64,000 nt of DNA from Neoechinorhynchus agilis (taxonomy: Eukaryota; Animalia; Acanthocephala): contig CM121342.1 in NCBI GenBank assembly GCA_051530055.1, positions 7,572,691 to 7,636,690 of the forward strand, read 5' to 3'. This document shows, piece after piece, positions 14,013 through 53,450 of this stretch; within the stretch, counting starts at the first letter, position 1, and every line of letters begins with the position of its first letter. The notes beneath the pieces were generated by a model that saw nothing but the letters and a program-made list of their open reading frames with translations, had not been told where the DNA came from and searched no databases. The position numbers were made by a program, and so were the translations under genes.

Positions 14013-14039
14013 GTAAAAATCGATTGCGATGAAATATTT

Positions 14040-14321
14040 AAAAAACATAGATCAGCTGGCGCAATACCCCTAGAATTAATTTCTATGGAAAAGTACATAA
14101 AAACCCAATCAGCTTGAGACCAATCTTTGCAAAGGGCCATTCCCCATAGTAATGGAGTGATTACGTCTGATAACGAATTCATTGAAAGGCTCAATGACCA
14201 CACTCACTTAAGTGGACATAGAATAATATCGACAGATATAGTCAACCTCTTTACGAAAATTCCAGTTGATGAGGCTATTGACTTAGCCATTCCGATTCTC
14301 TTGAGAATTAATCAAGGTTGA
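14040..14321 (+). mobile_element. Penelope-like element reverse transcriptase fragment
   Basis: PRINFYGKVHKNPISLRPI and STDIVNLFTKIPVDEAI are typical PLE RT motifs. Confidence 0.75.
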
Positions 14322-14399
14322 AAAACTACCAGAAATTTGACCGCAGAAGGGTTACCTAGGGTTTTCGCTCACATTTAGTTCTTACCATACAATGAAAGG

Positions 14400-25071: not shown

Positions 25072-25758
25072 TTACTTCCTTCTTCTTTTATTTTGTTTTG
25101 CTAAATCTGGATTGTACTGCCAACTGTTTCGCCCCATTTCATGGAGCTCACTACTCTCCCTTGAAGGGATCTGATACCCCAAAGCCCTTGCGACCAAATG
25201 TTGCGCTTTTTTCTTCTCTTCAGATTCCCTAAGATGCCGCTCTTTTCGAAGTTCATCGATAGTGCACGGCGATTTCAAGACATGTTGGTCAAATCCACGT
25301 TCTTGTTCATTTAAATTGTAACATTTCATTGTGTAGAGAGGATCGTCGCGTCTTTTCCATTTCAAATCGCGCTCTTCGTCAATTAAAGGATCTTCCTTAA
25401 TTCTCTTACGGGTATACCAGGGTCGAGCAACATTATTATTGTCCCTGACAGATTGACCAAGATAAGTGAGAACACCTAATTTCTTTTCAAAATTGTCAGT
25501 GGCGTCCTTCAACTCTTTTTGAAGTTCTTTGTTTGGTAGAAGACCTGGATCAAACAACTCGACTCGACCTTTTGTTGTGGATTGCGAGGCGTCTTCTGCT
25601 TTCTCAGACAAACATAGATTTCTGGCTTCCTGATCAGCCAAAATCTTCCTTTTTTCCAAGTTCTGCTCAAGAATAGCAGCCTCCCGCTCATCTCGACGAA
25701 CACGTGCGATGTTTGCTTTGGTTCTAACGTGCCATCGCTTCTTCGGTAGAATGTTCAT
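25072..25758 (-). CDS. LENG1: Leukocyte receptor cluster member 1 homologue (Cir_N domain)
   Basis: N-terminus MNILPKKRWHVRTKANIARVRRDE, internal EKKLGVLTYLGQS, C-terminal QYNPDLAKQ. Confidence 0.9.
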   Translation of the reverse strand: MNILPKKRWHVRTKANIARVRRDEREAAILEQNLEKRKILADQEARNLCLSEKAEDASQSTTKGRVELFDPGLLPNKELQKELKDATDNFEKKLGVLTYLGQSVRDNNNVARPWYTRKRIKEDPLIDEERDLKWKRRDDPLYTMKCYNLNEQERGFDQHVLKSPCTIDELRKERHLRESEEKKKAQHLVARALGYQIPSRESSELHEMGRNSWQYNPDLAKQNKRRRK

Positions 25759-25899
25759 TCAATAACCGCGAGATATCTAAAATCAATCGAAATCTCGGTC
25801 GATAGAGTTGGAGATGCGGCTATCATAATCCCTCGGGGAGATATTTCGAAAAAGGAAGCCTTGCCAGACATTGTTTTGCAAGTGCCATAATAAGCTCAC

Positions 25900-28800
25900 T
25901 CGCTGGTTATTAAAAGACGTTCCTAAAACGTCTTGGTGAAGACCTAAATAACACTTTTAATCATATTAACCGTTACCTTCTCAGGTACCAACATTTTCAC
26001 ATCGATTGAAATATTTCGCTTCGTCAGTCTTTTAAAAATATTTTAGTTGTTTTCTATTGCATGGCTCGGGTTTTTAAAAGGCTTTTGAGCGAAATATCTC
26101 AATAAATATATATTTAGAAGTGTTGTTTAGAAATCTTCACCCGGTAAAGAGTTTATTAAAGACGTTCAGTGAACGTCTTCGGGTTCATCATCAGTTCGCT
26201 GGTTATTAAAAGACGTCCCAAAAACGTCTTGGTGAAGACCTAAATAACACTTTTAATCATATTACCCGGTACCTTCTCATGTACCGACATTTTCACATCG
26301 ATTGAGATATTTCGCTTCGTCAGCCTTTTAAAAATATTTTAGTTGTTTTGTATTGCATGGCTCGGTTTTTAAAAGACTTTTGTAGCGAAATATCCAAGTT
26401 CAGTGAACGTCTTCGGGTTCATCATCAGTTCGCTGGTTATTAAAAGACGTCCCAAAAACGTCTTGGCGAAGACCTAAATAACACTTTTAATCATACCGGT
26501 ACCTTCTCAGGTACCGACATTTTCACATCGATTGAAATATTTCGCTTCGTCAGTCTTTTAAAAATATTTTAGTTGTTTTGTATTGCATGGCTCGGGTTTT
26601 TAAAAGACTTTTGTAGCGAAATATCGCAATAAATATATATTTAGAAGTGTTGTTTAGAAATCTTCACCCGGTAAAGAGTTTATTAAAGACGTTCAGTGAA
26701 CGTCTTCGGGTTCATCATCAGTTCGCTGGTTATTAAAAGACGTCCCTAAAACGTCTTGGTGAAGACCTAAATAACACTTTTAATCATATAATCCGGTACC
26801 TTCTCAGGTACCGACATTTTCACATCGATTGAGATATTTCGCTTCGTCAGTCTTTTAAAAATATTTTAGTTGTTTTGTATTGCATGGCTCGGGTTTTTAA
26901 AAGACTTTTGTAGCGAAATATCGCAATAAATATATATTTAGAAGTGTTGTTTAGAAATCTTCACCCGGTAAAGAGTTTATTAAAGACGTTCAGTGAACGT
27001 CTTCGGGTTCATCATCAGTTCGCTGGTTATTAAAAGACGTCCCAAAAACGTCTTGGCGAAGACCTAAATAACACTTTTAATCATATAATCCGGTACCTTC
27101 TCAGGTACCGACATTTTCACATCGATTGAGATATTTCGTTTCGTCAGTCTTTTAAAAATATTTTAGTTGTTTTGTATTGCATGGCTCGGGTTTTTAAAAG
27201 ACTTTTGTAGCGAAATATCTCAATAAATATATATTTAGAAGTGTTGTTTAGAAGTCTTCACCCGGTAAAGAGTTTATTAAAGACGTTCAGTGAACGTCTT
27301 CGGGTTCATCATCAGTTCGCTGGTTATTAAAAGACGTCCCAAAAACGTCTTGGTGAAGACCTAAATAACACTTTTAATCATATAACCCGGTACCTTCTCA
27401 GGTACCGACATTTTCACATCGATTGAGATATTTCGCTTCGTCAGTCTTTTAAAAATATTTTAGTTGTTTTGTATTGCATGGCTCGGGTTTTTAAAAGACT
27501 TTTGTAGCGAAATATCTCAATAAATATATATTTAGAAGTGTTGTTTAGAAATCTTTAACCGGTAAAGAGTTTATTAAAGACGTTCAGTGAACGTCTTCGG
27601 GTTCATCATCAGTTCGCTGGTTATTAAAAGACGTCCCAAAAACGTCTTGGCGAAGACCTAAATAACACTTTTAATCATATAATCCGGTACCTTCTCAGGT
27701 ACCGACATTTTCACATCGATTGAGATATTTCGCTTCGTCAGTCTTTTAAAAATATTTTAGTTGTTTTGTATTGCATGGCTCGGGTTTTTAAAAGACTTTT
27801 GTAGCGAAATATCTCAATAAATATATATTTAGAAGTGTTGTTTAGAAATCTTCACCCGGTAAAGAGTTTATTAAAGACGTTCAGTGAACGTCTTCGGGTT
27901 CATCATCAGTTCGCTGGTTATTAAAAGACGTCCCAAAAACGTCTTGGTGAGACCTAAATAACACTTTTAATCATATTACCCGGTACCTTCTCAGGTACCG
28001 ACATTTTCACATCGATTGAGATATTTCGCTTCGTCAGTCTTTTAAAAATATTTTAGTTGTTTTGTATTGCATGGCTCGGGTTTTTAAAAGACTTTTGTAG
28101 CGAAATATCTCAATAAATATATATTTAGAAGTGTTGTTTAGAAGTCTTCACCCGGTAAAGAGTTTATTAAAGACGTTCAGTGAACGTCTTCGGGTTCATC
28201 ATCAGTTCGCTGGTTATTAAAAGACGTCCCGAAAACGTCTTGGCGAAGACCTAAATAACACTTTTAATCATATAATCCGGTACCTTCTCAGGTACCGACA
28301 TTTTCACATCGATTGAGATATTTCGTTTCGTCAGTCTTTTAAAAATATTTTAGTTGTTTTGTATTGCATGGCTCGGGTTTTTAAAAGACTTTTGTAGCGA
28401 AATATCTCAATAAATATATATTTAGAAGTGTTGTTTAGAAATCTTCACCCGGTAAAGAGTTTATTAAAGACGTTCAGTGAACGTCTTCGGGTTCATCATC
28501 AGTTCCTGGTTTTAAAAGACGTCACGTTCAGTGAACGTCTTCGGGTTCATCATCGTTGTCTGGTTATTAAAAGACGTCCCGAAAACGTCTTGGTGAAGAC
28601 CTAAATAACACTTTTAATCATATTACCCGGTACCTTCTCAGGTACCGACATTTTCACATCGATTGAGATATTTCGCTTCGTCAGTCTTTTAAAAATATTT
28701 TAGTTGTTTTGTATTGCATGGCTCGGGTTTTTAAAAGACTTTTGTAGCGAAATATCTCAATAAATATATATTTAGAAGTGTTGTTTAGAAGTCTTCACCC

Positions 28801-31560
28801 GGTAAAGAGTTTATTAAAGACGTTCAGTGAACGTCTTCGGGTTCATCATCAGTTCGCTGGTTATTAAAAGACGTCAAAAACGTCTTGGCGAAGACCTAAA
28901 TAACACTTTTAATCATATTACCCGGTACCTTCTCAGGTACCGACATTTTCACATCGATTGAGATATTTCGCTTCGTCAGTCTTTTAAAAATATTTTAGTT
29001 GTTTTGTATTGCATGGCTCGGGTTTTTAAAAGACTTTTGTAGCGAAATATCTCAATAAATATATATTTAGAAGTGTTGTTTAGAAATCTTTAACCGGTAA
29101 AGAGTTTATTAAAGACGTTCAGTGAACGTCTTCGGGTTCATCATCAGTTCGCTGGTTATTAAAAGACGTCCCGAAAATGTCTTGGCGAAGACCAAAAATA
29201 ACACTTTTAATCATATAATCCGGTACCTTCTCAGGTACCGACATTTTCACATCGATTGAGATTTTTCGTTTCGTCAGTCTTTTAAAAATATTTTAGTTGT
29301 TTTGTATTGCATGGCTCGGGTTTTTAAAAGGCTTTTGCAGCGAAATATCTCAATAAATATATATTTAGAAGTGTTGTTTAGAAATCTTCACCCGGTAAAG
29401 AGTTTATTAAAGACGTTCAGTGAACGTCTTCGGGTTCATCATCAGTTCGCTGGTTGTTAAAAGACGTCCCAAAAACGTCTTGGTGAAGACCAAAAATAAC
29501 ACTTTTAATCATATAATCCGGTACCTTCTCAGGTACCGACATTTTCACATCGATTGAGATATTTCGTTTCGTCAGTCTTTTAAAAATATTTTAGTTGTTT
29601 TGTATTGCATGGCTCGGGTTTTTAAAAGACTTTTGTAGCGAAATATCGCAATAAATATATATTTAGAAGTGTTGTTTAGAAGTCTTCACCCGGTAAAGAG
29701 TTTATTAAAGACGTTCAGTGAACGTCTTCGGGTTCATCATCTGTTGTCTGGTTATTAAAAGACGTTCCTAAAACGTCTTGGTGAAGACCTAAATAACACT
29801 TTTAATCATATAATCCGGTACCTTCTCAGGTACCGACATTTTCACATCGATTGAGATATTTCGTTTCGTCAGTCTTTTAAAAATATTTTAGTTGTTTTCT
29901 ATTGCATGGCTCGGGTTTTTAAAAGACTTGTAGCGAAATATCTCAATAAATATATATTTAGAAGTGTTGTTTAGAAGTCTTCACCCGGTAAAGAGTTTAT
30001 TAAAGACGTTCAGTGAACGTCTTCGGGTTCATCATCAGTTCGCTGGTTGTTAAAAGACGTCCCAAAAACGTCTTGGTGAAGACCTAAATAACACTTTTAA
30101 TCATATTACCCGGTACCTTCTCACGTACCGACATTTTCACATCGATTGAGATATTTCGCTTCGTCAGCCTTTTAAAAATATTTTAGTTGTTTTGTATTGC
30201 ATGGCTCGGGTTTTTAAAAGACTTTTGTAGCGAAATATCTCAATAAATATATATTTAGAAGTGTTGTTTAGAAGTTCAACGCCGGTAAAGAGTTTTCTTT
30301 TCTTTTCTTTTCTCTCTCTTCTTATTAAAGACGTTCAGTGAACGTCTTCGGGTTCATCATCTGTTGTCTGGTTATTAAAAGACGTTCCTAAAACGTCTTG
30401 GTGAAGACCTAAATAACACTTTTAATCATATAACCCGGTACCTTCTCAGGTACCGACGTTTTCACATCGATTGAGATATTTCGCTTCGTCAGTCTTTTAC
30501 TTTTTAAAATATTTTAGTTGTTTGTATTGCATGGCTCGGGTTTTTAAAAGACTTTTGTAGCGAAACATCGCAATAAATATATATTTAGAAGTGTTGTTTA
30601 GAAGTCTTCACCCGGTAAAGAATTTATTAAAGACGTTCAGTGAACCTCGTCGGGTTCATCATCACTTCGCTGGTTATTAAAAGACGTCCCAAAAACGTCT
30701 TGGTGAAGACCTAAATAACACTTTTAATCATATTACCCGGTACCCTCTCATGTACCGACATTTTCACATCGATTGAGATATTTCGCTTCGTCAGCCTTTT
30801 AAAAATATTTTAGTTGTTTTGTATTACATGGCTCGGGTTTTTAAAAGACTTTTGTAGCGAAATATCTCAATAAATATATATTTAGAAGTGTTGTTTTGAA
30901 GTCTTTAACCGGTAAAGAGTTTATTGAAAACGTTCAGTGAACGTCTTCGGGTTCATCATCAGTTCGCTGGTTGTTAAAAGACGTCCCAAAAACGTCTTGG
31001 CGAAGACCTAAATAACACTTTTAATCATATTACCCGGCACCTTCTCAGGTACCGACATTTTCACATCGATTGAGATATTTCGCTTCGTCAGTCTTTTAAA
31101 AATATTTTAGTTGTTTTGTATTGCATGGCTCGGGTTTTTAAAAGACTTTTGTAGCGAAATATCTCAATAAATATATATTTAGAAGTGTTGTTTAGATGTC
31201 TTCACCCGGTAAAGAGTTTATTAAAGACGTTCAGTGAACGTCTTCGGGTTCATCATCAGTTCGCTGGTTGTTAAAAGACGTCCCAAAAACGTCTTGGCGA
31301 AGACCTAAATAACACTTTTAATCATATTACCCGGCACCTTCTCAGGTACCGACATCGATTGAGATATTTTCGAGCTTCGTCAGTCTTTAAAAAATATTTT
31401 AGTTGTTTTGTATTGCATGGCTCGGGTTTTTAAAAGACTTTTGTAGCGAAATATCTCAATAAATATATATTTAGAAGTGTTGTTTAGAAATCTTTTTAAC
31501 CGGTAAAGTTTATTGAAAACTGATGATGAATGCTAGGAGGTTCACAGAACGTCTTCAAAA
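25900..31560. repeat. Satellite array, 297-bp unit, about 19 copies, rich in palindromes
   Basis: CGCTGGTTATT recurs at 26724, 27021, 27318, 27615, 27912 (period 297); a few units are truncated. Confidence 0.97.
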
Positions 31561-33099
31561 ACTCTACAGCGCGAAGACTTCTAAACAATTAGTCTACATC
31601 CGATTCTTTCGTTTTTTGTTTAATACGCAAATGTTGCCTCTGTTCGTACTTTTAATACGAAACGAGCTTGCGTTTTCTTGATCTGCTCATCGGCGCGAGC
31701 GATAAAATGGTATTTTATCCAATAATCATGGGTAAGTGTACAAGGCGATTGGTACTTGAGGAATGATCGATAGAGAAATCTGATTGGTAGGGCTTTGAAT
31801 GGTTTCTTAACCAATTATTCTCTGTTGTTATCGCCATAGCGGAGTCACTTATTTAAACTGTATTTACCCGAATGATCCGTCTTAGATATCGGATTGACCC
31901 AATCAGACATGAAGAAACGGACCGCTTAGGGGTCATTTTCAAAATTTGACCCTATCGAGTTATCGCCAATCGGGGATGGTTGCACGCGATAAAACCCTGG
32001 ATCTAAGGACTTCGTGTCTATTGTTTTTGAAAGATTGGAATCGTTAACATTGGTTAGAATCGACGAGATCTTTTCTATTTAATCAATTTGGTTCCTCCCC
32101 CCCCGTAATCTTCTTCAACTCGAAGACTGGTTTCGTCTTAGTATCAACCTAGACATTCAACGTTCATTCCCGGAAACTGGTAATCTCAGGTCCATGATAG
32201 TCGTTGCTTTTGGGAGTTTATTAGACTGTTAGTCGCATGATGTCATGATAATAAGATTGGAATCAGCTGTCGATTAAATTTTATTTTGCCGACAGAAACT
32301 CGAGATTTAAGTTTAACCCTCCAACTGTTGTTGAAGTTTCACATTTCCGCCATTCATTAGCTGCTGACGCGTCATCGATTTGTCCTTGTAAACGTCTAAA
32401 GGTTACCCGGATCTGAACAGCGATGATTCCAGTAGTTGTCTTGCGAAGAATGTGGACCTGTTTCGTTCAAATAAAACAGCACAATTATGTATACGATTCC
32501 ACCCTAAAGTTCGTTAAGCTTTAAAGCGTAAAATTTGCTAGAAAATCTTTAATACTGAGAAAGGATAATTGTTTCACCATAAATTATTGCTATAATGTAC
32601 TTTCACTATTCGTTTACCATTAAATTGATAGAGCGCCATGTAGATTTCCAACTCATAAATAGAGCTTTGGGCGATTGCTTTTTTAAATTTAGTAACTGTT
32701 TCTCTGTAGTCACTTTCTGTTTTGATCGTAAGGATGCCAGAATTTGAGCGAAAGGTATTTTTTCCATAGTGACACATTTCAATGAGCGATGCTTGGGTCA
32801 AGTCTCACTTTCAGTCTGAGGACCTTTCGCTTTTTGAGTCTCGATCATAGCTGCGCGTTCAGACGACGCCTTCGTTAAACCACCGCTCTTTTTTTCGATA
32901 TTTCAATTGTCATTTAACCTTTATAATACGTTCATTTTATTGGTCAAAAAGCTATTACTTTCACAGTAAATTAATCCGTTTTTTTTGTATTAGATCATTT
33001 AATCCCGAACGATGTTAGACCTAACAAAGAAAAGTTATAAGTTGCGTATAATATCAAGTAGTGCCAGTAAAGACTTCAAAACTAATAAAAAATTCTTCA

Positions 33100-33230
33100 G
33101 ACATTCTTCAAATAAGAATTGTGGTGAATCCCCACTATCACGGGTGCGTCGACTACGATATTGCCTACGTAGGTGAAACAACGAATCTACTGATGCCACT
33201 CATGAACATCGTGCCATAAGTGCAAACGTG
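33100..33230 (+). mobile_element. Penelope-like GIY-YIG endonuclease fragment
   Basis: DIAYVGETTNL...HEHRA (YVGET at 33166-33180). Confidence 0.55.
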
Positions 33231-33350
33231 TCGAATGTAATTGCATCTTTACTTATAAGACTCGACAAATGCCCTCGCTCAATTCGATTTCATTGATGGG
33301 TTCCCGTTCTATTTTCTATCGATGATTGTTCAAATAATTGCATTTTGAAG

Positions 33351-34163
33351 CTATATTTTCCCAAAGAAGTTCCGTCTCAGTCTAAAAGCTAACCTTGGGT
33401 TGAATTCTTCGTGGTCTACAAAGCCCGTTTGCCTCATCTTGTCGAACTCCTCTTTTACAGTAGCCCAGTCCGCTAGCGGAAGCAAATGCAGCTGACTTCC
33501 TGCCATCAACTCTGCCATCCCTTCTTGCCATGAACAACCAAGGAGGAGCACTAGGTTGGTTACTGCGGTGACTCCCATGCCCGATTGAGCCACCAACACC
33601 TCTGCTAACAACTCTCTTCTTTCAGGAAAAGTTCGAATGAAGCATTTAACCGCGGATGTCAAAGATAGTTTCACTTTTGTGTCGTACCCTTGTGGTGGAT
33701 CGTCAAACTCACTTTTCACCGCCTCCGGCAAATGTTCGAGATCGCGTAAAATGCGCAGCCAGGCCTCCGGCGCTAACCCACAATTATGCTTCCTCCGCTC
33801 CGCTCTCGCTATTGTTGCACGCATCCTGGCTCCCGTCCAGTCAGAATGCCCTTCCTTGCGCTTGTCCCCAAATACAAACAGATCCGGAGATAGCACGCTC
33901 CTTATTGCTTCTCTGCAACACTCGGGTCGTCGACTCAGAATGCCCCTCGCCGCCGTGAACCCTTCTTTGAGGGTCCGATGTTTAGCGTAGACGAACTGGA
34001 GGCTGCATCCGCACCCTCCACAGCTCGCTCTTCGCCCAGACCCGCCATCGCTGCCACCGGTGGTGGACTTGCAGTTGTCTCCCGAGCCCTGGACTCTCTC
34101 GACTTGGCCCGGGTGACGGGGGGAGAGACCCGTCCCGCCAAAGAAGTCCCAGACAGAAAACCC
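33351..34163 (-). pseudogene. EVE ORF2 remnant: N-terminal part of a toti-like RdRp, truncated before the catalytic motifs
   Basis: PPQGYDTKVKLSL..FPERRELLAEVLVAQSGMGVTAVTNLVLLLG..EFDKMRQTG..FRLRR resembles the pre-palm region of toti-like RdRps as I recall it; no GDD motif is present. Confidence 0.6.
34157..34163 (-). promoter_or_regulatory. Putative -1 ribosomal frameshift heptamer G GGU UUU
   Basis: The 0 frame is that of ORF 33935..34141 and the -1 frame is that of ORF 33351..34589; a GC-rich stem-forming sequence starts 6 nt downstream. Confidence 0.6.
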
Positions 34164-37100
34164 TGGTCCTGGGACGTTTCTTGCCCAACACCGCGTCACT
34201 GGCCGTCGCCCTTGATCCTTCATCCAACGGCGGTACTCTGCCACATCTAATACGGGCGTGTGTTTTAAGGCCTCCGCTGCTCCTTCCAATGCCCGAACTG
34301 CCTGTCCCTGTAACAACTTGGTCTGCGAGTTTGGTGCCAACCACTTGATTGATCTTAGACTTCTGGCCATAGCTCTCGTTGCTCGTGCTCGTTGATCCAT
34401 GCCAATGGGTCGTATCGCGTCTAGCCACTTCGCCGTGAACAAGGTGGTCTGTATCGTCCGTTCCGCCAAGCCTCTAGCCTCATCCTCTGTTGCTTCCAAG
34501 CCCCTTGGCAGTGTTGTCATTCGTAAGGCTTGAATCAATTCAGCGGGCGCCTTCCGTGTTTTCGAGCACTTCCAACTGAATTTCCTCAAAAGAGATCGTT
34601 TGCCCTACTCCTTCCTTGTCTTCTAGCGCAGCTGCTCCTTCTAAGTTGGGATTGGGGCCTTCCTGGGGGCGGTCCGCTGTTTGAATCCTCTTCTTCCTCC
34701 TCTGGCAATTCAGGTTTTGGCTGGGGTGGTGCAGCCGTTGTTGCTGCTATCACATGCGTCGGTGATTCTGGTGCCGGTGTCTCATGCCTTTCAATGATTT
34801 GTTTGAGTGAGTCCCCGAGTGGCTGCAGCATATTCTGCTTCTGGCCAGCTGTTCGTTTCTGAGGAGGAGCTGGTGGAACATCCTGGTCGCCCTTACGCCG
34901 GTGCGGCCGATTTGGTCCAAATGCTGGAGGTGGGGCGAAGGTGTCCCAGGGGCCGGGCATTGCGGTTGCGTGCGCGGCACCGTGCATCGCACATACCCAT
35001 TTCTCCGCTCTGCCGAAGCATTTGAAGAGATGGAGCTGCTGTAGCGTGTCGTACAATGTTGGCACGCGCACCAACAAGGTGTCTACATGTCCGCAGCCCA
35101 CGTAACTGGATGGGATATAGGGCACGAACCTTAGCTAGAAGTCGTCCCTATTGGGTTGCGCTTGTGCCAAATACTCCGACCGGCCTGAGTCGGACCAGGT
35201 TCGCCTATATTGCAGAGCCGTGCCTATGGCCTGTAATGCGAGGTTGGCTAGCCTCGCATCGTAGCCGTGGACTGCCTTTACCGTCACCCATTTTCCCGCT
35301 ACGCGCTCTGCATTTTCAACACTAAATCCTTCCAAGACTATCTTCGAGGATGAGATGTGAGGAGTCGCCATTCCCAACATTGCCACCAAATGCTAGGGCA
35401 GATAGCTTGCCCAATCGGTCGTGTCGTCCACTTGGGTTCTCAAGTGGACCCCACCAGAGGTTGGTCCACCCAAAGTGGTAGCAGATCCGCGAATAGATAT
35501 CCCACAGCTCTGCTGCAGGAAGGATCAGCTCCTCTAAGTCGTATTCCGTGTCTAGTAGCCTACTGTAGGCAATCAGAGGATTATTCACGTTGGGCCAGGC
35601 CGTTTTCCCAAGCAGCATGTCCCTGAATGGGAACTCCGGCGACGCAGCAAGGCCCACTGCTGCCAACACCGTCCGAGGGTCTCCAACTTCCGATGGCACA
35701 TAGATAACGTCACTTCGTCCCATCATTGCCTGTATGAGAGGATCACCATGGGCCTGACTGTTATTCACGTTGAGCCACCTCAGGGTTCGTGCCCACCCTA
35801 GACGCCGTTCAATCCTCGCTCCCGCCTCTCACAAAGCTTGGGCACAGTAAACCGCCGCCATGCGCATCACGAATCTCTCTGGTTGGACCTTCCTGCTCAT
35901 TAATGTCTTGATCGCTTTTGCATGCCCAGGCTGGTAGTCCTGCGCCCTTACACCTCCTACGAATTGACTCGTGTTCTTTAACGCCTGTAGCCACGCTCCG
36001 TCACGCACAATGTCTGTTAATCCAGAACACATCTCCAGTAGCGCCAAGGTGGGTATTCGTTCGTGCTCCTTCCTGCGCTCTGATATCTACACTGAATCCC
36101 CTCTCTGACCGTTGAGAACCTCACCTCAATATCCCTGTATCGACTGCAGCCATATATGCAAATCATCCCCTAACTTTCCCATTCCCAACTGGGCTCAACC
36201 ATTGGAAGAAGTTCTCCCCGAGTGTTCACCCTGAGGTTCCCTGTCCCTGTCCAGAACATAGCAATCATCTTCTGGCCCAGCTTCCGGCACCTCATCCATT
36301 TCATCGACATCTATTCCCAGCTCCTGTTTTGCGAATTGCTCCTGGTAATCATCCGGTAGCCCGTCGTCCTCATATACATCATGGGGGCTATGGAGTGCAG
36401 ATTTGGACAATAATGAGTGAGCGACCACTCCAGGTGAAACCTGCCGTGGTCAAGGTGGTATAGTGCCGAGAGCGAATCGCCATTAGGCCTGAATCCATAC
36501 CTATAGCGATCGCCCGTTATCAGAGTCACTACCTGGTGTGGGTAGTCAACCGGTCCAGAGTATGGGTGGAGTGGTACATCCGGTAGGCCGTGCATGCTTG
36601 CGGTGGGCAGCGTCCTCTCCTGGACGAGCAGAGCGTATTCCACTCCGACCACGTGATGTATACTGGCGATTGCATTCAATCTCTTGGTATCTGGCAACTC
36701 CCAGTACATAACCATATTCCCGTCCTTGCAAAGTTCTCGCACAGCCCTCTGGCAAGGTTGGGAACCAACCGAGAAGATCATACGATAAGATTCTAAAGTT
36801 ACGTGCGATTTTAGCTTGTCTAAGGAAAGTGCTTGGCAGGTTCGTTGAAAATGTGGTGGCGAGGTGTTTCCCAACGGCTCCTTTATACCCTAGATCATTC
36901 AGATTTTTATTGATTCGAGGGCGGGTATACAACAGCCCATAATCCTTTAGCGACCACTGGACCATGTCAGCCGAAAAGTCAATGAGAAGGGCTGACATCG
37001 TCGCCTCAATCACTAAATCATGTGCCATGCATGGCCCTACCACTGACACTAGCTGCTCCGCCGTGTCCCGGTACTGCAACAGTGGGCACATCAAGTACCC

Positions 37101-37318
37101 ACGCATTGCAGCCTTCGGCAAAGCGATCGTGAGGTTAGTGGTCCCAAAGACTAGGTGCCCCGGCCTCCCGTATACACCTGCACCGCCTGCAAGAAGATGT
37201 CCTGCCGAGCGAAGCGGTGACACCAGATCATAGCCGTCTCGAATATCATGTTAGCTGACGTTGTCAGCTCACCGATCCTATCTACTTCCGCTGTCGATCT
37301 ACCTCCTCGATCAGCCTA
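34164..37318 (-). pseudogene. EVE ORF1 remnant (capsid-like protein with Pro/Ala-rich C-terminal region), split over several frames
   Basis: Segments SANMIFETAMIWCHRFARQDIFLQAVQVY / LALPKAAMRGYLMCPLLQY-like / AWPNVNNPLIAY..AAELWDIYSRICYHFGW / PAPPQKR..APPQPKPE continue across single frame changes. Confidence 0.55.
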
Positions 37319-37324
37319 CTCAAT

Positions 37325-38273
37325 GTGCTGTCACCACTTCGTTTTAATATTTTCCTAAACAACTTCAAACATCTCTCCTCTCACTTTGAACCCTTCTTAT
37401 ACGGCGACGATGTCACCCTCATCACTCAATCACCACCCACCTCTCTCTTTCTTTAACTTCTAACGAAATCAAACGCATAAAAGATTTCTGCACCAATCAC
37501 AAACTCTACCTTAATTTCTCCAAATGCTTCAAAATGATCATCTCTCTTGCGCATCTTCACATCATCTCATGAGCTTCTAAATGACATCCTACGCGTCACC
37601 TACCTAAGAATTGTGGGTCTCCGATTTCAATCAAATTAGAAATGGGACTCGCGAATCACTCTCTCCCTAAAGCACAACGCCTTTAAAATTGATCTCCTCA
37701 AACGCCTCCAACATTTAGGAATCCCTTCACCCGATCTCTACAAATTTTACTTCTGCTTTATCTTACCATCCCTCACCTACGGTTTTCTCGTATTTTGCAA
37801 CCATTCCAAATCTCAAGTCCGTCGTCTTGAAATGTTTCATAAAATAGCATCTAAAATTTGTACAATTTTTCCCCCTCTCACCGAATGCCTTGATACTATT
37901 TTCAACGCCTCTCAATCCTACCATCACAATTTCGTCAACATATCGCCTCCTTTTCAATCGAGTACAACACTCGTAATCCTAATTCGTTTCACCCTCCCTC
38001 AACCTCGCACCTCCCTATACCTACGCTCCTTTTTCCATACTGCCCAATCTTCTCGGATATCAGAACTTGAAATGAACCTGAGGAAAGACTTACCTTACAA
38101 GCGCTCCTGCAAACAATAAACACCAATTGCCACCAAAATGGAGACCTTCCAAACCAACCGGATATTACCACCCGCCGGCACTCTTAATCCACTCCAAAAT
38201 CAATAGTCATCTCATTTTCCAATCAGAACTCGAGTGTTTATGAGGATCCGACAAATAAAACTTGTTATTATTA
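37325..38273 (+). mobile_element. 5'-truncated LINE (CR1/L2-like): RT C-terminal half plus 3' end
   Basis: VLSPLRFNIFLNN, FLYGDDVTL, KLYLNFSKC, LLKRLQHLG..LYKFYFCFILPSLTYG; ends in AATAAA (38254) and TTATTATTA (38265-38273). Confidence 0.85.
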
Positions 38274-38367
38274 CGTCTAAAGGTATATCTGGCGGCGCGT
38301 CCGCGTGTTGGAGGGCCAATCTTTGAAGGACCGAATTGTCTAAGTGTTTTATCCGCGCCGATAGATC

Positions 38368-38593
38368 AATAAAGACAGCACACAATCGTATGTCTAAATA
38401 TCGAATTTAATAAATAAAGCATCTGAAAACTTTGATAAAGACGACACACAATCGTATGCCGAAATATCGAATTTAATAAAGTATCTGAAAACTTTGATAA
38501 AGACGGCACACAATCGTATGCCGAAATATCGAATTTAATAAATAAAGTATCTGAAAACTTTGATAAAGACGGCACACAATCGTATGCCGAAAT
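38368..38593. repeat. Minisatellite, 62-66 bp unit, about 3.4 copies
   Basis: CACACAATCG at 38379, 38445, 38507, 38573. Confidence 0.9.
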
Positions 38594-38608
38594 AAGTTGT
38601 TCATGAAT

Positions 38609-38742
38609 ATATATTTTTTGTTTGGTGATGAGAGGAATGGAGATTAATATATTGCTTCCCTTCCACAATATTTCATCCGTTTCCTCGGACTTCTAGCAAT
38701 AAATTAATCTCTATTCCTCTCATCACTAAACAAAAAATATAT
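38609..38742. repeat. Foldback with 40-bp arms and 54-nt spacer (MITE-like or hairpin RNA)
   Basis: Arms 38609-38648 and 38703-38742 differ at two positions. Confidence 0.8.
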
Positions 38743-39293: not shown

Positions 39294-39370
39294 TTTTCTC
39301 CATAAAGAAGAGATGAGTGTGCTCAAAAACACAGTACTTTCGCTAGTTCATCGGAGCTTGAATAAATATA

Positions 39371-41272
39371 ATGCCAAAAGGACCTGCGATTGGAATCGAT
39401 CTCGGCACGACATACTCTTGCGTTGCTGTGTTTCAGCACGGCAAGGTTGAAATAATTGCAAACGATCAAGGCAATCGAACCACACCGTCATATGTGGCAT
39501 TTACAGATTCAGAGCGATTGATTGGTGACGCAGCCAAGAATCAAGTAGCTCTTAATCCTACTAACACTGTATTTGATGCGAAACGATTGATTGGTAGGCG
39601 ATTCCAAGATTCCAGCGTACAATCTGATATGAAACATTGGCCATTTAAGGTGCTCAACGATGGCGGAAAACCAAAAGTTCAAGTTGAGTATAAAGGAGAA
39701 TTAAAGGCGTTTTATCCAGAGGAAATATCGTCGATGGTATTGACCAAAATGAAGGAAATTGCAGAATCGTATTTGGGAAGGAAGATTACGGACGCCGTTG
39801 TAACAGTGCCTGCTTATTTCAACGATAGTCAACGCCAGGCGACAAAAGACGCAGGTATGATTGCTGGTCTTAATGTTCTTCGGATTATCAACGAACCAAC
39901 TGCAGCTGCTATTGCTTATGGATTGGACAAAAAAGTGACTGGTGAAAAAAACGTATTGATTTTTGATCTTGGAGGTGGCACATTTGATGTCAGCGTACTT
40001 TTGATTGAAGATGGAATTTTTGAAGTTAAATCGACTGCTGGGGATACTCACTTGGGCGGTGAAGACTTTGACAATCGTATGGTTGAACATTTCGTAAACG
40101 AATTTAAACGGAAAACGAAAAAAGATATAAGTGTTAACAAAAGAAGTCTTCGTCGTCTTAGGACTGCTTGTGAACGAGCAAAACGAACACTTTCTTCATC
40201 GACCCAAGCAAGCATTGAAATAGATTCTCTTTTTGAAGGAGTAGATTTTTACACGAGTATAACCCGTGCTCGGTTTGAAGAACTAAACGCAGATTTGTTT
40301 AGAAGTACACTGGATCCGGTTGAAAAAGCTCTGAGAGATGCGAAGTTAGACAAAGGAAGGATTGATGATATCGTGCTCGTTGGTGGTAGTACTCGGATTC
40401 CAAAGATACAGAAACTATTAAGGGAATTCTTTAACGACAAAGAGTTGAACAAAAGCATTAATCCCGACGAGGCTGTTGCATATGGAGCTGCTGTTCAAGC
40501 TGCAATTTTAACAGGTGATAAAAGTGAAGCGGTTAAAGACCTTCTCTTGTTAGATGTTGCCCCATTGTCATTGGGTATTGAAACGGCCGGTGGAGTTATG
40601 ACCGCTCTTATTAAACGCAACACTACCATTCCAACCAAACAATCACAGACTTTCACAACCTATTCCGATAATCAGCCAGGAGTATTGATTCAGGTTTATG
40701 AAGGGGAAAGAGCTATGACTCGAGATAATAATCTATTAGGCCGCTTTGAACTTACTGGGATTCCACCAGCACCGAGAGGTGTTCCACAAATTGAAGTTAC
40801 TTTTGATATTGACGCAAATGGGATCATGAACGTTTCTGCGGTTGACAAGAGCACAGGAAAGCAAAATCGGATTACGATTACCAATGATAAAGGTCGACTA
40901 AATAAAGACCAAATCGATGCTATGGTAAGGGACGCGGAAAAGTATAAACAAGATGATGAACGAGAAAGGGAACGTATAGACTCTAAAAACAAACTTGAGA
41001 ATTATTGCTATTCAATAAAGCAGACGGTTGAAGATGACAAAGTGAAGAGCAAATTAAGTTCTAGTGATTTGGATACAATTAGATCAAAAGTGACTGAAAG
41101 CTTGAAGTGGCTTGAAGGCAATCAGAGTGCAGAGAAAGATGAGTATGAACATCAGTATCGAGAAATGGAACGAGTTTGCAGTCCACTCATGACCAAAATG
41201 TATCAACAAGGAGGCCATGGCGGCCCCACTGATGGCAGTGGTGGAGGGCCTACCATTGAAGAAGTTGACTAA
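39371..41272 (+). CDS. hsp70: Cytosolic Hsp70, intronless (inducible type)
   Basis: [22 protein letters not shown] and [15 protein letters not shown] signatures; C-terminal GPTIEEVD. Confidence 0.99.
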
Positions 41273-41297
41273 TAATGATAGTAAGGCAAACTAATTC

Positions 41298-42650
41298 AAA
41301 ATAAAACCATCTCCAACTCTTTTCTCGGTCTACAATGAAGCGAAATAAGGAACCGGATCTTTTTTTATGAACGTCGCTTAATGTAGATATTTTTATAGGC
41401 ATACTTTTAAATCTAAACTCGATCGCAGTAAGAGAAATGCATCCAAATCATTGTTTGTAACAAAAGGAGATAAAATAATTTAAAAATAAAACCATCTCCA
41501 ACCCTTTTCTCGCTTTAATATCAAGCGAAATAAGGAAACGGGTCTTCTCAATGAACGTAACTTATTGTAGATATTTTTATAGGCATATTTTTAAATCTAA
41601 ACTCGCTAGCAGTAAGAGAAATGCGTCCGAATCATTGTTTGTAACAAAAGGAGATAAAATAATTTAAAAATAAAACCATCTCCAACTCTTTTCTCGGTCT
41701 AAAATCAAGCAAAATAAGGAAACGGGTCTTTTCAATGAACGTCGTTTAATGTGGATATTTTTTATAGGAATACTTTTAAATCTATACTCGATCGCAGCAA
41801 GAGAAATGCGTCCGAATCATTGTTTGTAACAAAAGGAGATAAAATAATTTAAAAATAAAACCATCTCCAACTCTTTTCTCGGTCTAAAATCAAGCAAAAT
41901 AAGGAAACGGGTCTTTTCAATGAACGTCGTTTAATGTGGATATTTTTTATATGCATACTTTTAAATCTAAACTCGATCGCAGTAAGAGAAATGCGTCCAA
42001 ATCATTGTTTGTAACAAAAGGAGATAAAATAATTTAAAAATAAAACCATCTCCAACTCTTTTCTCGGTCTAAAATCAAGCAAAATAAGGAAACGGATCTT
42101 TTCAATGAACGCCGTTTAATGTGGATAATTTTTTATATGCATACTTTTAAATCTAAACTCGATAGCAGTAAGAGAAATGCGTCCAAATCATTGTTTGTAA
42201 CAAAAGGAGATAAAATAATTTAAAAATAAAACCATCTCCAACTCTTTTCTCGGTCTAGAATCAAGCAAAATAAGGAAACGAATCTTTTCAATGAACGCCG
42301 TTTAATGTGGATAATTTTTTATATGCATACTTTTAAATCTAAACTCGATCGCAGTAAGAGAAATGCGTCCAAATCATTGTTTGTAACAAAAGGAGATAAA
42401 ATAATTTAAAAATAAAACCATCTCCAACTCTTTTCTCGGTCTAGAATCAAGCAAAATAAGGAAACGAATCTGTTCAATGAACGTCGTTTAATGTAGAAAT
42501 TTTTTTATATGCATACTTTTAAATCTAAACTCGATCGCAGTAAGAGAAATGCGTCCAAATCATTGTTTGTAACAAAAGGAGATAAAATAATTTAAAAATA
42601 AAACCATCTCCAACTCTTTTCTCGCTTTAATATGAAGCGAAATAAGGAAA
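41298..42650. repeat. Tandem array, 184-186 bp unit, about 7 copies, starting in the hsp70 3' region
   Basis: AAAATAAAACCATCTCC recurs about every 185 bp from about 41299 to about 42594. Confidence 0.97.
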
Positions 42651-43188
42651 GATTCAATCACTTCCCTGATTCTGAGAGATCGGTTTGGCTGTGTGCCTAA
42701 AAAGGAAAAGAGCCGATTGAGGAACGTTGTCCTACAGAATAATGTACCATCGGCTGGATTCATGAAAAGTCAACAAATCAATGAGGGGAAGTCATTTGGA
42801 AGTCCTCAAAGTCAAAATGCACCTTTCCCTTTACGACAGCATTCTGATTTTGCTAATTTTTCTTCTTAAACTATTACAAATTCTTTGCTGATCAAAATGC
42901 TTTACGATTTCCCGTGATTATTTCTATTCTAAGTAACGGGTATGAGCTGCGCTAAGTGTGCGTGATTGTCTATTTTTAAATACTAATTCGCAGAAGTTGA
43001 AGACGGTACTCCTTTGAATCGTCTAACAATGGGTTTTAGTTTAACAGAGTTTAAGATTAAACATGGACTTCAATCATGGAACTCATGATGTTTCAGAACC
43101 GTTTTCAACTACTCATCTTTCGCACCGTATCTGACTCACCGACTTTGCTGTTTAGTTTATTTAGTCTTGCGCTTCTCCATTAACACTT

Positions 43189-45189: not shown

Positions 45190-47090
45190 TTTAGAATTTT
45201 TATATGTAGCGCCAAAGATTTGGGTCTGGGAAGCGCTGGTATGCGCTCAGTGCTCCAAGACCGTACGGTAAATGAGTTTGTAAGAATCCCTCTGGATTCT
45301 CCGATATCTCCCGAGGAGGTGGGACTCAGTGAGTTTCCTCCCTTCAGCAAGCAATTTCGTTCCTTTTGATGTGCGTCTTTGGTGGTAACGGATTTGAACC
45401 CGTTGACCCTTAGCTGGGACTCGGAGCATTAGTCCACTTGACCACCTCAACACACTACGGAATGTACAAACTTCGCCACTTTAGCCTGGATAAGCCTTCG
45501 GATTTTATTAGAATTTTTAAATGTGGCTCAGCCGGTAGTCTTTTGATTAGATATTTTCTTTCCATACACGGCCGAATGGACACCCGCAGTCCACCGATTC
45601 ATTGGTCTGGGAAGCGCTCGTCTGCGCTCAATGCCCCAAGACCGTACGGTAAATGAGTTTGTAAGAATCCCTCTGGATTCTCGATATCTGAAGCGGGACT
45701 CATCAGTGAGTTTCCTCCTTCAGCAAGCAATTTCGTTCCTTTTGATGTGCGTCTTTGGTGGTAACGGATTGAACCCGTTGACCTACTGGGACTCGGAGCA
45801 TTAGTCCACTTGACCACCTCAACACTACGGAATGTACAAATTCGCCACTTTACTGGATAAGCTTCGATTTTTAGAATTTTTAAATGTGGCTCAGCCGGTA
45901 GTCTTTTGATATTTTCTTTCCATACACGCCGAATGGACACCCGCAGTCCACCATCATTGGTCTGGGAAGCGCTCGTCTGCGCTCAATGCCCAAGACCGTA
46001 CGGTAAATGAGTTTGTAAGAATCCCTCTGGATTCTCCGATATCTCCCGAGGAGGCGGGACTCATCAGTGAGTTTCCTCCCTTCAGCAAGCTATTTCGTTC
46101 CTTTTGATGTGTCTTTGGTGGTAACGGATTAGAACCCGTTGACCCTTAGCTGGGACTTGGAGCATTAGTCCACTTGACCACCTCAACATACTACGGAATG
46201 TACAAACTTCGCCACTTTATCCTGGATAAGCTTTCCGATTTTATTAGAATTTTTAAATGTGGCTCAGCCGGTAGTCTTTTGATTAGGTATTTTCTTTCCA
46301 TACACGGCCGAATGGGCACCCGCAGTCCACCTATCCATTGGTCTGGGAAGCGCTCGTCTGCGCTCAATGCCCCAAGACCGTACGGTAAATGAGTTTGTAA
46401 GAATCCCTCTGGATTCTCCGATATCTCCCGAGAAGCCGGGACTCATCAGTGAGTTTCCTCCATTCAGCAAGCAATTTCGTTCCTTTTGATGTGCGTTTTT
46501 GGTGGTAACGGATTTGAACCCGTTGACCCTTAGCTGGGACTCGGAGCATTAGTCCACTTGATCATCTCAAAACACTACGGAATGTACAAAATTCGCCACT
46601 TTATCCTGGATAAGCTTTCCGATTTTATTAGAATTTTTAAATGTGGCTCAGCCGGTAGTCTTTTGATTAGATATTTTCTTTCCATACACGGCCGAATGGG
46701 CACCCGCAGTCCACCTATCCATTGGTCTGGGAAGCGCTCGTCTGCGCTCAACGCTCCAAGACCGTACGGTAAATGAGTTTGTAAGAATCCCTCTGGATTC
46801 TCCGATATCTCCCGAGGAGGCGGGACTCATCAGTGAGTTTCCTCCATTCAGCAAGCAATTTCGTTCCTTTTGATGTGCTTTTTTGGTGGTAACGGATTTG
46901 AACCCGTTGACCCTTAGCTGGGACTCGGAGCATTAGTCCACTTGACCACCTCAACACACTACGGAATGTACAAACTTCGCCACTTTGGCTTGGATGAGCT
47001 TTCCGATTTTTTTAGAATTTTTATATGTGGCTCAGCCGGTAGTCTTTTGGTTAGATATTTTCTTTCCATACACGGCCGAATGGACACCAG
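45190..47090 (-). repeat. Tandem array, about 384-bp unit, 5 copies, each a tRNA-like head plus hammerhead-like module
   Basis: CCGTACGG at 45261, 45642, 45996, 46378, 46762. Box A TGGTCAAGTGG (45434-45444) and box B GGTTCAAATCC (45390-45400). CTGATGA at 45700, 46061, 46443, 46827; it is deleted in the first unit. Confidence 0.92.
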
Positions 47091-47427
47091 CTTTTTTTTG
47101 CAATTAATGTGTTATTTTTCGTTACATTTTATATCCTTGACTTCAAAGAGTATGTGAATTAGCTTTCTTTTGAGAATAAATTATATTCTTAAATTTATAG
47201 CAATATTAATTTTTGTGTTCTATATTAAGCATCTTACAAAAAATATGTTTAGAATCCACCCTTATGGAAATATTTTCTTATCGCAAATCCATAATCGGAA
47301 GGCCCGACAAAACCCAACAAAAATCATTTAGCATTTGCGGAAAAATCCCAAGAACAGTGGTGGTCTTTGATTTGAATGTGGCAAATGAGCATTCAAGGAA
47401 ATCTTACTTGATTTGAAAGGCACTTCT

Positions 47428-49978: not shown

Positions 49979-50029
49979 ATATGTATGAAACAAGAAAAAG
50001 TCGGAATGCTGATATGGTCAAAATCTTTT

Positions 50030-52270
50030 TTATAAAAATCCCAAGTCTCTACGATGAGTTTTAAAAATCATTTCAATGTATGTGTGAAATTCGAACTGAA
50101 AGTTTGCAATGAAAACGTTAAGGTTTTGCTCGCAAACCCGTGAATCTGAGTTTTAAATTTTTGACAAATTTTTCACTTTTTAAAGGGGAGGAGGAAAGCA
50201 ACAATTTATCATTTCTCTGCTATTTTAAAAGATCTTTTTTTGTTGTTTTTTCTCAAGATTTCCTTTAAAAGGATTTTTCAAAGCGAAAATCATAAATTTT
50301 TACGATGAGTGCAAAAGATTATTTCAATGAATTTGTGAAATTCGAGATGCGACCTAAAAGTTTACAATGTGAGTTTTAAATTTTTGACAATTTTTTAATT
50401 TTTTAAAGGGGAGCAGGAAAGCAACAATTTAACAATACTCTACGATTTGAAAAGATTTTTTTTGTTTTCCAAGCGAAAATCATAAATTTCTACGATGAGT
50501 TTTAAAAATCATTTCAATGTATGTGTGAAATTCGAACTGAAAGTTTGCAATGAAAACGTTAAGGTTTTGCTCGCAAACCCGTGAATCTGAGTTTTAAATT
50601 TTTGACAAATTTTTCACTTTTTAAAGGGGAGGAGGAAAGCAACAATTTATCATTTCTCTGCTATTTTAAAAGATCTTTTTTTGTTGTTTTTTCTCAAGAT
50701 TTCCTTTAAAAGGATTTTTCAAAGCGAAAATCATAAATTTCTACGATGAGTGCAAAAGATTATTTCAATGAATTTGTGAAATTCGAGATGCGACCTAAAA
50801 GTTTACAATGTGAGTTTTAAATTTTTGACAATTTTTTAATTTTTTAAAGGGGAGCAGGAAAGCAACAATTTAACAATACTCTACGATTTGAAAAGATTTT
50901 TTTGTTTTCCAAGCGAAAATCATAAATTTCTACGATGAGTTTTAAAAATCATTTCAATGTATGTGTGAAATTCGAACTGAAAGTTTGCAATGAAAACGTT
51001 AAGGTTTTGCTCGCAAACCCGTGAATCTGAGTTTTAAATTTTGACAAATTTTTCACTTTTTAAAGGGGAGGAGGAAAGCAAAAATTTATCATTTCTCTGC
51101 TATTTTAAAAGATCTTTTTTTGTTGTTTTTCTCAAGATTTCCTTTAAAAGGATTTTTCAAAGCGAAAATCATAAATTTTTACGATGAGTGCAAAAGATTA
51201 TTTCAATGAATTTGTGAAATTCGAGATGCGACCTAAAAGTTTACAATGTGAGTTTTAAATTTTTGACAATTTTTTAATTTTTTAAAGGGGAGCAGGAAAG
51301 CAACAATTTAACAATACTCTACGATTTGAAAAGATTTTTTTTCCAAGCGAAAATCATAAATTTCTACGATGAGTTTTAAAAATCATTTCAATGTATGTGT
51401 GAAATTCGAACTGAAAGTTTGCAATGAAAACGTTAAGGTTTTGCTCGCAAACCCGTGAATCTGAGTTTTAAATTTTTGACAAATTTTTCACTTTTTAAAG
51501 GGGAGGAGGAAAGCAAAAATTTATCATTTCTCTGCTATTTTAAAAGATCTTTTTTTGTTGTTTTTTCTCAAGATTTCCTTTAAAAGGATTTTTCAAAGCG
51601 AAAATCATAAATTTCTACGATGAGTGCAAAAGATTATTTCAATGAATTTGTGAAATTCGAGATGCGACCTAAAAGTTTACAATGTGAGTTTTAAATTTTT
51701 GACAATTTTTTAATTTTTTAAAGGGGAGCAGGAAAGCAACAATTTAACAATACTTTACGATTTGAAAAGATTTTTTTCCAAGCGAAAATCATAAATTTCT
51801 ACGATGAGTTTTAAAAATCATTTCAATGTATGTGTGAAATTCGAACTGAAAGTTTGCAATGAAAACGTTAAGGTTTTGCTCGCAAACCCGTGAATCTGAG
51901 TTTTAAATTTTTGACTAATTTTTCACTTTTTAAAGGGGAGGAGGAAAGCAACAATTTATCATTTCTCTGCTATTTTAAAAGATCTTTTTTTTGTTGTTTT
52001 TTCTCAAGATTTCCTTTAAAAGGATTTTTCAAAGCGAAAATCATAAATTTCTACGATGAGTGCAAAAGATTATTTCAATGAATTTGTGAAATTCGAGATG
52101 CGACCTAAAAGTTTACAATGTGAGTTTTAAATTTTTGACAATTTTTTAATTTTTTAAAGGGGAGCAGGAAAGCAACAATTTAACAATACTCTACGATTTG
52201 AAAAGATTTTTTTTCCAAGCGAAAATCATAAATTTCTACGATGAGTTATAAAAATTATTTCAATGAATTT
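50030..52270. repeat. Satellite, 434-441 bp dimeric unit (about 250 + 190 bp related subunits), 5 copies
   Basis: CTACGATGAGTT at 50049, 50490, 50930, 51364, 51799, 52236; the second subunit starts TACGATGAGTGC (about 50300). Confidence 0.95.
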
Positions 52271-53450
52271 GTGAAATTCGAGTAAAACACTTAAACAGTT
52301 CCTGAATTCGACTCAAAAATCCATCAGTATTTCGCATGAATGGAAAAAAGGTCAAAAAGTGAAGAAAAGCTTAACGTTTTCATGAGTTGATTGAATTTAC
52401 CCTCAAAATTTTTAATGTAAAGTAATCATTACGTTTATTTTTCCTTTTACAATAATAAAGTACAAAACGTGCAATCACCACCGTCCGCAAAATTGGAGCT
52501 TTTCTCCTTCTTCGGCTGTCGCTATCACGCTAGCGGCATTGCCTCGTTACGAGCAAAACAATTGGGATGATATATATCCACGAGAAAATGCAGAAAGCAT
52601 AAGACTCTGCTTGTATAAATTCCATTTGTAAATGATAGCGACAGCCGGGGAAGCAGAGAAGCTAAGATTTCGCTGACGGTGGTGATTGCACGTTTCATGC
52701 TTTATTATTGTAAGATTTATTAGATTCCCTAAAAAATAGAGATTATGCAAATTTTATGCGTCACTCGGAAGAATCGCGATTGATGACGTCGAGGAGCATT
52801 GAATATGAATGCGATTGGAAGCGAAGAAATCGTTTTTTCCCACGGTTTTCTTGTCCGTAGTTTCTGCTTGAGAGACATTTTTATTAAAAAGTCTATCTTA
52901 AGATTCGTTATAGGTTTGGTGCGTTATAAACGCTTAAAGCGGTTCCTGATTTTGTATGTGGCGATGAGGAAAAAGTATATCAAAGGAAATTGAAATATTT
53001 CGTCCAATCACACTGGAATTCTTCAGTCAATTATCTGAAAATTAATTTGGCAACCTCAATGTCTTATCCGGAGGTATTCTCAACTTTAGGGAATATCCCT
53101 GAATGAACATGGCCTCGATAATAACACGGTCCGTAGTCAAAGAGTGGGAAACCACAGTGGAACTCGTGTCCTGTTTCTTCTTCCTGATTTTTCCTTAGTG
53201 ACTGAATTTCGATGTTGAACGAATTTGGGCGAGAAAAAATTTCTTTTTGGTGGTCATTTAGGCTATAATCAGCGAAAGAGTGCGTGTTGAAGTGTTCATT
53301 CGCCCAGGGTTGAAAGATACTTTCAATAATTTTGCCACAATTTATTTCAAAAATTTGCAAACAATTGACTGAAGAAAGCCAACGAAAAGGCCGAAAATTT
53401 TCAAGATAAATCTATTTTCTTAATCAAACATCGCTAATTGAAACTGAAAC

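Follow-up and report, generated by a model that had tools for sequence, protein, structure and literature searches.

The window analysed here, a stretch of 64,000 nucleotides, consists of AT-rich animal DNA (~35% GC) with compact genes and satellites, within which positions 33,400-37,300 stand out with a GC content of 46-58%. This GC-rich block of ~3.9 kb carries toti-like (Ghabrivirales) virus sequence on the minus strand and abuts the remnant of a LINE on the plus strand. Read from left to right, the unit comprises a viral piece (B), a 39-nt piece of a host repeat, a second viral piece (A), the 3' part of the LINE and its tail, with both viral pieces antisense to the LINE and the more 3' viral position on the left in each. 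Tandem arrays occupy 25754-31500, 41288-42800, 45255-47175 and 50020-52300 (units of ~297, 186, 384 and 440 bp, respectively), and the endogenous viral element (EVE) lies ~2 kb to the right of the 297-bp array. Near-identical local duplications are found at 4333-6743/11576-14012 and at 18898-20808/22883-24795, with a Tudor-like ORF of 283 aa, recognised by eye, in duplicated copies at 5077-5928 and 12320-13171; these duplications may be real or a haplotype artefact. Beyond the LINE tail on its right side, 38366-38742 contains a short tandem repeat of 62-66 bp and a MITE-like inverted repeat of 48 bp, some 0.6 kb ahead of an Hsp70 ORF without introns (39362-41272).

The viral piece adjoining the LINE (A; 36197-37309, minus strand) corresponds to the internal part of a capsid gene of the CsTLV2/Hubei toti-like virus 5 type, based on tblastn. 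Identities are 31-34% to Hubei toti-like virus 5 (E 3.7e-29) and 28-29% to the CsTLV2 capsid (E 1.7e-20), and toti-like virus relatives align to 37166-36368 at 24-38%. The gene is interrupted by frame changes near 37170, 36737 and 36380 and by a 26-codon gap near 36915. A single relative was found for the ORF at 36546-37250, namely P0002 (75%), whose tblastn identity in the two LINE-proximal segments is 75-83% and which, like P0030 and P0031 discussed below, is a gene model on another contig annotated as a hypothetical protein of Neoechinorhynchus agilis. In a structural comparison of a low-confidence P0002 model (pLDDT 51), the top five of 48,161 chains were all dsRNA-virus capsids, at Z-scores of only 4.2-5.7, the best being the L-A capsid (Z 5.7, rmsd 5.9, 226 aligned); Foldseek with the same model gave no match at E ≤ 0.001. 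Pfam returned nothing viral in 10 ORFs or in P0002, and PDB sequence searches gave no matches. A GxGYxYP identity for P0002 was considered and rejected, its ESM Atlas leads all being sub-0.9. Since P0002 has ~70 further residues 5' of the joint and a related-copy contig in read set X1 extends ~900 nt beyond 37159, piece A was evidently cut within the capsid gene. Eight relatives carry RdRP_4, and RdRp profile searches found no match to a polymerase core within 33000-38400. The element is thus a fragment without the polymerase core, so that its family assignment is a capsid-based one, and by capsid homology A is identified as an endogenous toti-like (Ghabrivirales) element.

Piece B, also on the minus strand, can be divided into three parts. 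The first is the N-terminal part of a capsid-like gene (35448-36136), cut near 35450 and broken by one stop and one frame change, which was recognised by its identity to P0030 (88%) and P0031 (75-80%), by a score of 18.3 bits on the capsid profile against ≤3.7 in shuffles (1000 made, 513 scored), and by an hhalign comparison of P0030 with the capsid alignment (probability 93.9). A Pro-rich/linker region follows (34586-35450), delimited from its ORFs and interrupted by a stop and by changes of frame; one genomic relative aligns gap-free to 34944-35450 at ~81% and then continues for 270 nt without a counterpart here. The third part is an unbroken frame of 417 codons (33351-34604), the final codons of which likely run into host DNA, and a related copy covers 33705-34022 of it, again at ~81%. 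All three parts of B have genomic relatives at about this identity over some of their length. This frame may represent the region just before the polymerase core, as judged from an hhalign match to the pre-RdRp region that is position-consistent and not significant (E 0.2). No homologs of it turned up in PDB or viral contigs, ESM Atlas offered no usable match, and its single-sequence model is poor (pLDDT 44) and without a counterpart in BFVD. No site with a slippery-heptamer pattern occurs in 34400-34800.

Differences from the related copies fall at third codon positions in 6 of 9 cases in the 417-codon frame and in 11 of 14 in the capsid-like gene, or 17/23 for both together (P 8e-5), the 23 being those that lie in the two B frames among the best-supported 40 of 428 differences. 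This bias indicates that the B frames were under viral coding constraint before integration and, together with the ~81% DNA identity, that the related copies likely integrated separately; several independent integrations of capsid-derived sequence are therefore likely in Neoechinorhynchus agilis. One related copy in X1 joins capsid-B sequence to sequence of the 417-codon ORF on opposite strands (window positions 34048 and 35889), which makes at least one further EVE locus an inverted mosaic too. A contig of 2,776 nt (depth 14) with ~80% similarity to capsid B over 115 nt (35536-35650) was seen in X5 only, not in X1, X3 or X8, and may reflect either an EVE that is polymorphic or a virus that the sample still harbours. 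The A-type and B-type capsid proteins share only ~21% identity over 99 positions, and the idea of B as a displaced N-terminus of A was rejected on this ground. A tree of 23 capsid segments did not resolve the placement of A and B, and none of the relatives was seen to have two capsid domains; A and B may be two viruses or two segments.

Between the two viral pieces, at 36158-36196 on the plus strand, lies a 39-nt piece of a multi-copy host repeat, revealed by a jump in read depth. In X8, raw DNA reads from another study with a single-copy depth of ~17, 231 reads extend past 36158 to the left and 214 past 36196 to the right, agreeing with the window over these 39 nt only. The piece is C-rich on the plus strand, as is the LINE. 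By eye, in the flanks carried by these reads the PIPNW of the window is preceded by an LLxKL-type motif and followed by an LRFI-type one, in one frame and across variants, and the flanks resemble the RT segment LLxKL...IPxxxLxF between motifs 3 and 4 of the RTs in the profile described below. On this reading the 39-nt piece is quite probably LINE RT sequence from ~30-35 codons upstream of the PQG motif; from the window letters alone, its placement on the RT profile is matched in score by 412 of 1000 random pieces. If it is LINE RT, the true 5' end of the LINE lies at ~36158 and virus A replaces ~100 nt of the RT.

The LINE itself (37324-38273, plus strand) is a 5'-truncated, decayed non-LTR retrotransposon that retains RT motifs 4-5, the C-terminal part of ORF2, a 3' UTR and a tail. 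A profile built from 26 non-LTR RTs (83 metagenome loci, of which 32 had an open frame and 26 remained after removal of near-duplicates) matches 37325-37888 with E 3.7e-12, the Pfam RVT_1 model by itself giving a weak E 0.023, and the plus-strand reading from 37325 runs VLSPLRFNIF...LYGDD. Coding in the element is interrupted by a single in-frame stop and by two or more frame changes. We suspect that the element belongs to the CR1/L2 group. Depth in X8, ~19 in the flank, reaches ~330 at the joint and ~2,990 near the LINE 3' end, or about 150x single-copy, describing a family of roughly 150 copies with a 5' truncation gradient. As few as 808 of 21,915 reads are ≥99% like this copy, approximately what the locus alone would give, and the lack of near-identical sister copies among the reads means that the copy is not young. 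No second copy of 37324-38273 was found within the 64-kb window, and no relatives of the LINE protein in metagenomes. Another decayed non-LTR element at ~14000-16235 (minus strand), in which CCHC zinc knuckles precede what looks like the start of an endonuclease (both recognised by eye), shows no similarity to it.

Capsid homology on the minus strand and the RT profile on the plus strand bear out the initial annotation, made from the letters of the window, in its description of a dsRNA-virus EVE lying antisense to a 5'-truncated LINE. It had the RT coding begin at about 37325 within the PQG motif, and 520 reads from other copies diverge exactly at 37324, carrying on, by eye, with the first half of that motif. 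Its limit for minus-strand viral coding, about 37318, was close: tblastn with P0002 reaches 37309, with homology convincing only as far as ~37291, and the frame is open to 37315. The AATAAA/(TTA)n 3' end that it placed at 38273 is located at 38254-38259 (AATAAA) and 38262-38273 (TTG(TTA)3), and X8 depth falls across this tail from ~2,990 to 71. The virus A/LINE joint is thereby confined to 37310-37323, between the end of tblastn homology and the point of read divergence, and no host spacer was seen, as had been claimed, in this gap of ~14 nt (at most ~30); its right part looks, by eye, similar to the PQG codons of the LINE, apart from a small gap. By a rough hand estimate, the chance of such abutment is ~150 copies x 60 nt / ~46 Mb, or ~2e-4 per EVE edge, using the genome size reported for Neoechinorhynchus agilis, the source of the closest proteins (PMC12690905).

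The left edge of the viral block could be located only to ~110 nt. When 33250-33450 was compared with 16 positions around the LINE tail, the longest stretch of perfect identity was GTCTAAA, at 33380-33386, within the GC change-point interval 33359-33470, and at 38275-38281, one base (38274) after the tail. The initial annotation found no convincing target-site duplication (TSD); this 7-bp pair is a candidate, and a suggestive one only, as matches of this length arose by chance in between 13 of 523 windows (three starts, picked after the match was seen) and 42 of 523 (sixteen starts). A TSD belonging to the LINE itself, which would have pointed to independent insertions, was not found: the best match around the LINE alone is 4 nt, and around A plus LINE 5 nt. 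The left flank at 33165-33300 has a second genomic copy (doubled depth, with about half of the reads differing), a possible partial outgroup for the target site.

The likeliest origin of the unit, although one to which we give slightly less than an even chance, is a single LINE insertion in which the second DNA end was extended on viral plus-strand mRNAs. Co-insertion of virus and LINE in one event, as initially proposed, is likely. Consistent with one event are the direct abutment within ~14 nt, the presence of a second multi-copy host piece right at the A/B joint with its C-rich strand in the same sense as the LINE, and a candidate TSD that encloses the whole unit, rather than the LINE alone or A plus LINE. 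Counting against it are the shortness of the TSD (7 bp), the imprecise left edge and the by-eye nature of the LINE reading of the 39-nt piece. In the sequence of steps that we propose, the LINE ORF2p would nick the target and copy LINE RNA from the tail, probably to ~100-140 nt 5' of PQG, while the 3' end of the top strand would be extended on virus B plus-strand mRNA, in the geometry of twin priming and in trans. Synthesis would then hop to the LINE cDNA for ~39 nt and on to virus A mRNA for ~1.1 kb, the virus A strand would be joined to the LINE cDNA at PQG, ligation would leave the 7-bp duplication, and deletions and stops would accumulate afterwards. Top-strand synthesis on a plus-strand mRNA yields an antisense copy whose left end corresponds to the more 3' mRNA position, the arrangement observed here, so the antisense orientation would be explained without a minus-strand template. 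To judge from its layout, the chimera would have arisen in the manner of twin priming, yet is not a canonical 5' inversion, in that the inverted parts are viral capsid sequence.

Two elements of the mechanism first suggested for the locus are not supported in their original form. A single jump followed by continuous copying of ~4 kb is at odds with the composition of the block, in which two different capsid genes have the 39-nt repeat piece between them. A jump to a viral minus strand, which viruses of the totivirus type make inside the capsid, is likewise dispensable, as plus-strand mRNA templates would suffice. In L1 experiments, insertions with parts in opposite orientation are ascribed to the joining of two RT-extended ends, with plus-strand mRNA as template (PMC11702581).

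A possible, if less probable, alternative is that the viral pieces were inserted separately, through capture of cDNA during break repair, into or beside an older LINE, with deletions removing the LINE 5' part and the original boundaries. By hand counts, the LINE part has 4-5 breaks over ~800 nt and the viral part 7-9 over ~3,900 nt (P 0.04-0.17); a LINE that is more broken than the virus would fit an older LINE and count against a single insertion, and the unbroken 417-codon frame points the same way. The viral copy has also lost several stretches relative to the related copies (~20, 78 and at least 270 nt), so that tight joints could have been made later by deletion. Several other copies of both viruses exist in the genome, and EVEs are often found near non-LTR elements in the absence of any proven chimera (PMC10235124, PMC12810003). 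Separate events would nevertheless require one small LINE copy to have received two insertions, both in the same orientation, and would make the 7-bp match beside the tail a coincidence (2.5-8%), with no TSD found around the LINE alone.

We consider it unlikely that one insertion arose by switching of the first strand, from LINE RNA at PQG to the A minus strand, back to LINE RNA and then to the B minus strand. The final order and TSD would be identical, the LINE pieces would lie in the expected order if the 39-nt piece is LINE, and template switching has been proposed for mosquito viral DNA forms (PMC5497376). Nevertheless, in L1 experiments switching gives joins in the same orientation, opposite orientations being ascribed to end joining (PMC11702581). 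The route also needs free minus strands from two dsRNA viruses, and these strands are normally held within capsids.

The locus is present in six runs representing five samples. A contig from X1, a read set from which the assembly itself may derive, covers 36167-37355 with 0 differences and crosses the A/LINE joint by 32 letters, while contigs from X3 and X5 pass 37324 to the end of the compared stretch, likewise with 0 differences. Contigs of X1, X3 and X5 cross the left edge as well, and contigs of X2, X3 and X5 the A/B joint; the depth of the island is close to that of its flanks in both X1 (105-124 versus 112) and X8 (~16 versus ~19). Other samples differ from the locus at only 2-4 sites per 3-4 kb, and no empty-site joint occurs among the joints listed for the six runs; the locus looks fixed. 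Reads of X2, X3 and X5, only guessed to be RNA, cover the flanks too and for this reason were not used as evidence of expression. That the composite is an assembly chimera or contamination is very improbable: X1 is possibly the assembly's source and, among the records listed, none alone spans the whole unit, but the left edge and the joints are bridged as above, depth equals flank depth in raw DNA reads from another study, and the stops and frame breaks exclude a live virus.

With its frames broken, the locus appears most likely to be an inert fossil. Returning to the single-insertion origin, its fullest form, in which a LINE's second-strand synthesis in the germ line hopped between LINE cDNA and mRNAs from a pair of co-infecting or co-packaged dsRNA viruses, is offered as a tentative possibility. 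The suggestion that read-through from the LINE could provide an antisense template for immunity does not fit the layout, in which the LINE 3' piece is promoterless and has the EVE on its upstream side. A LINE so placed cannot drive an antisense transcript through the EVE and could only supply a poly(A) signal; such a transcript would need a plus-strand promoter to the left of 33390. In acanthocephalans PIWI and ping-pong piRNAs are retained and RdRP is absent (PMC12256650), and a putative piRNA role of the EVE is possible.

The entry of RNA viruses into animal genomes has mostly been inferred from their closeness to retroelements. A direct virus-LINE joint within an RT motif, combined with a LINE-like piece between viral genes, would instead be a testable record of the reaction and, if true, a rare fossil. 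Should the hopping reading be correct, a non-LTR RT, and not LTR elements only, can make interleaved virus-retroelement chimeras in animals; such chimeras would always be antisense to the virus, the orientation used by piRNA defence; and thorny-headed worms would have hosted at least two undescribed toti-like lineages, one possibly still present in X5. With several related copies present in a compact host genome, a virus-LINE signature of this kind can be looked for at further loci.

Among known systems, the closest parallel is provided by L1 experiments in which two-transcript insertions of opposite orientation, with TSD and poly(A), were ascribed to the joining of RT-extended ends, one case including a switch inside the twin-primed strand (PMC11702581). 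These two-transcript and twin-primed insertions share with the present locus a sense LINE 3' part with tail, an antisense copy of foreign RNA 5' of it, a switch in the inverted part and a TSD around the unit, here a candidate. They differ in that they involve human cell lines and cellular mRNAs, whereas here an invertebrate non-L1 element and viral mRNAs are concerned, the mechanism is inferred, and the locus occurs in every sample examined (PMC11702581). LCMV-IAP and the L1-made bornavirus elements (EBLN) similarly reflect a retroelement RT copying a non-retroviral RNA virus, with virus-retroelement joints in the former and TSD and tail in the latter (PMC3205384, PMC8554740). Unlike the element here, IAP is an LTR element and the LCMV-IAP event was somatic, and EBLNs are copies of viral mRNA with their own poly(A) that, in the available portions of these reports, are not described as LINE chimeras (PMC3205384, PMC8554740).

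Within the Ghabrivirales, CsTLV2 and Hubei toti-like virus 5 form one group (PMC8973213). Over ~290 residues, capsid A has 28-34% identity to this group, and the low-confidence model of its relative P0002 is closest to L-A-type capsids; unlike the group, the element has no RdRp core, has a second, very distant capsid (B) in the same block and has an acanthocephalan as its likely host. EVEs derived from Totiviridae are known from planthoppers (PMC12810003), LTR-linked, piRNA-making EVEs from Aedes (PMC5497376), and in Pomphorhynchus laevis only Mononegavirales elements are named in the part of the report available to us (PMC12548735). We found no report of a toti-like EVE in acanthocephalans or of an interleaved LINE-dsRNA virus insertion in the literature covered, main texts drawn mostly from outside subscription journals. 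The dinoRNAV and Chilo suppressalis EVEs near non-LTR elements show the same association of an RNA-virus EVE with a retroelement (PMC10235124, PMC12810003). Those cases and the Aedes elements involve proximity (95 bp to kilobases) or LTR elements, in contrast to the direct joint inside an RT motif described here (PMC10235124, PMC12810003, PMC5497376). The mechanism that we propose is likely, though unproven, and whereas viral cDNA made by retroelements is already known, its interleaved LINE-virus form appears to be new.
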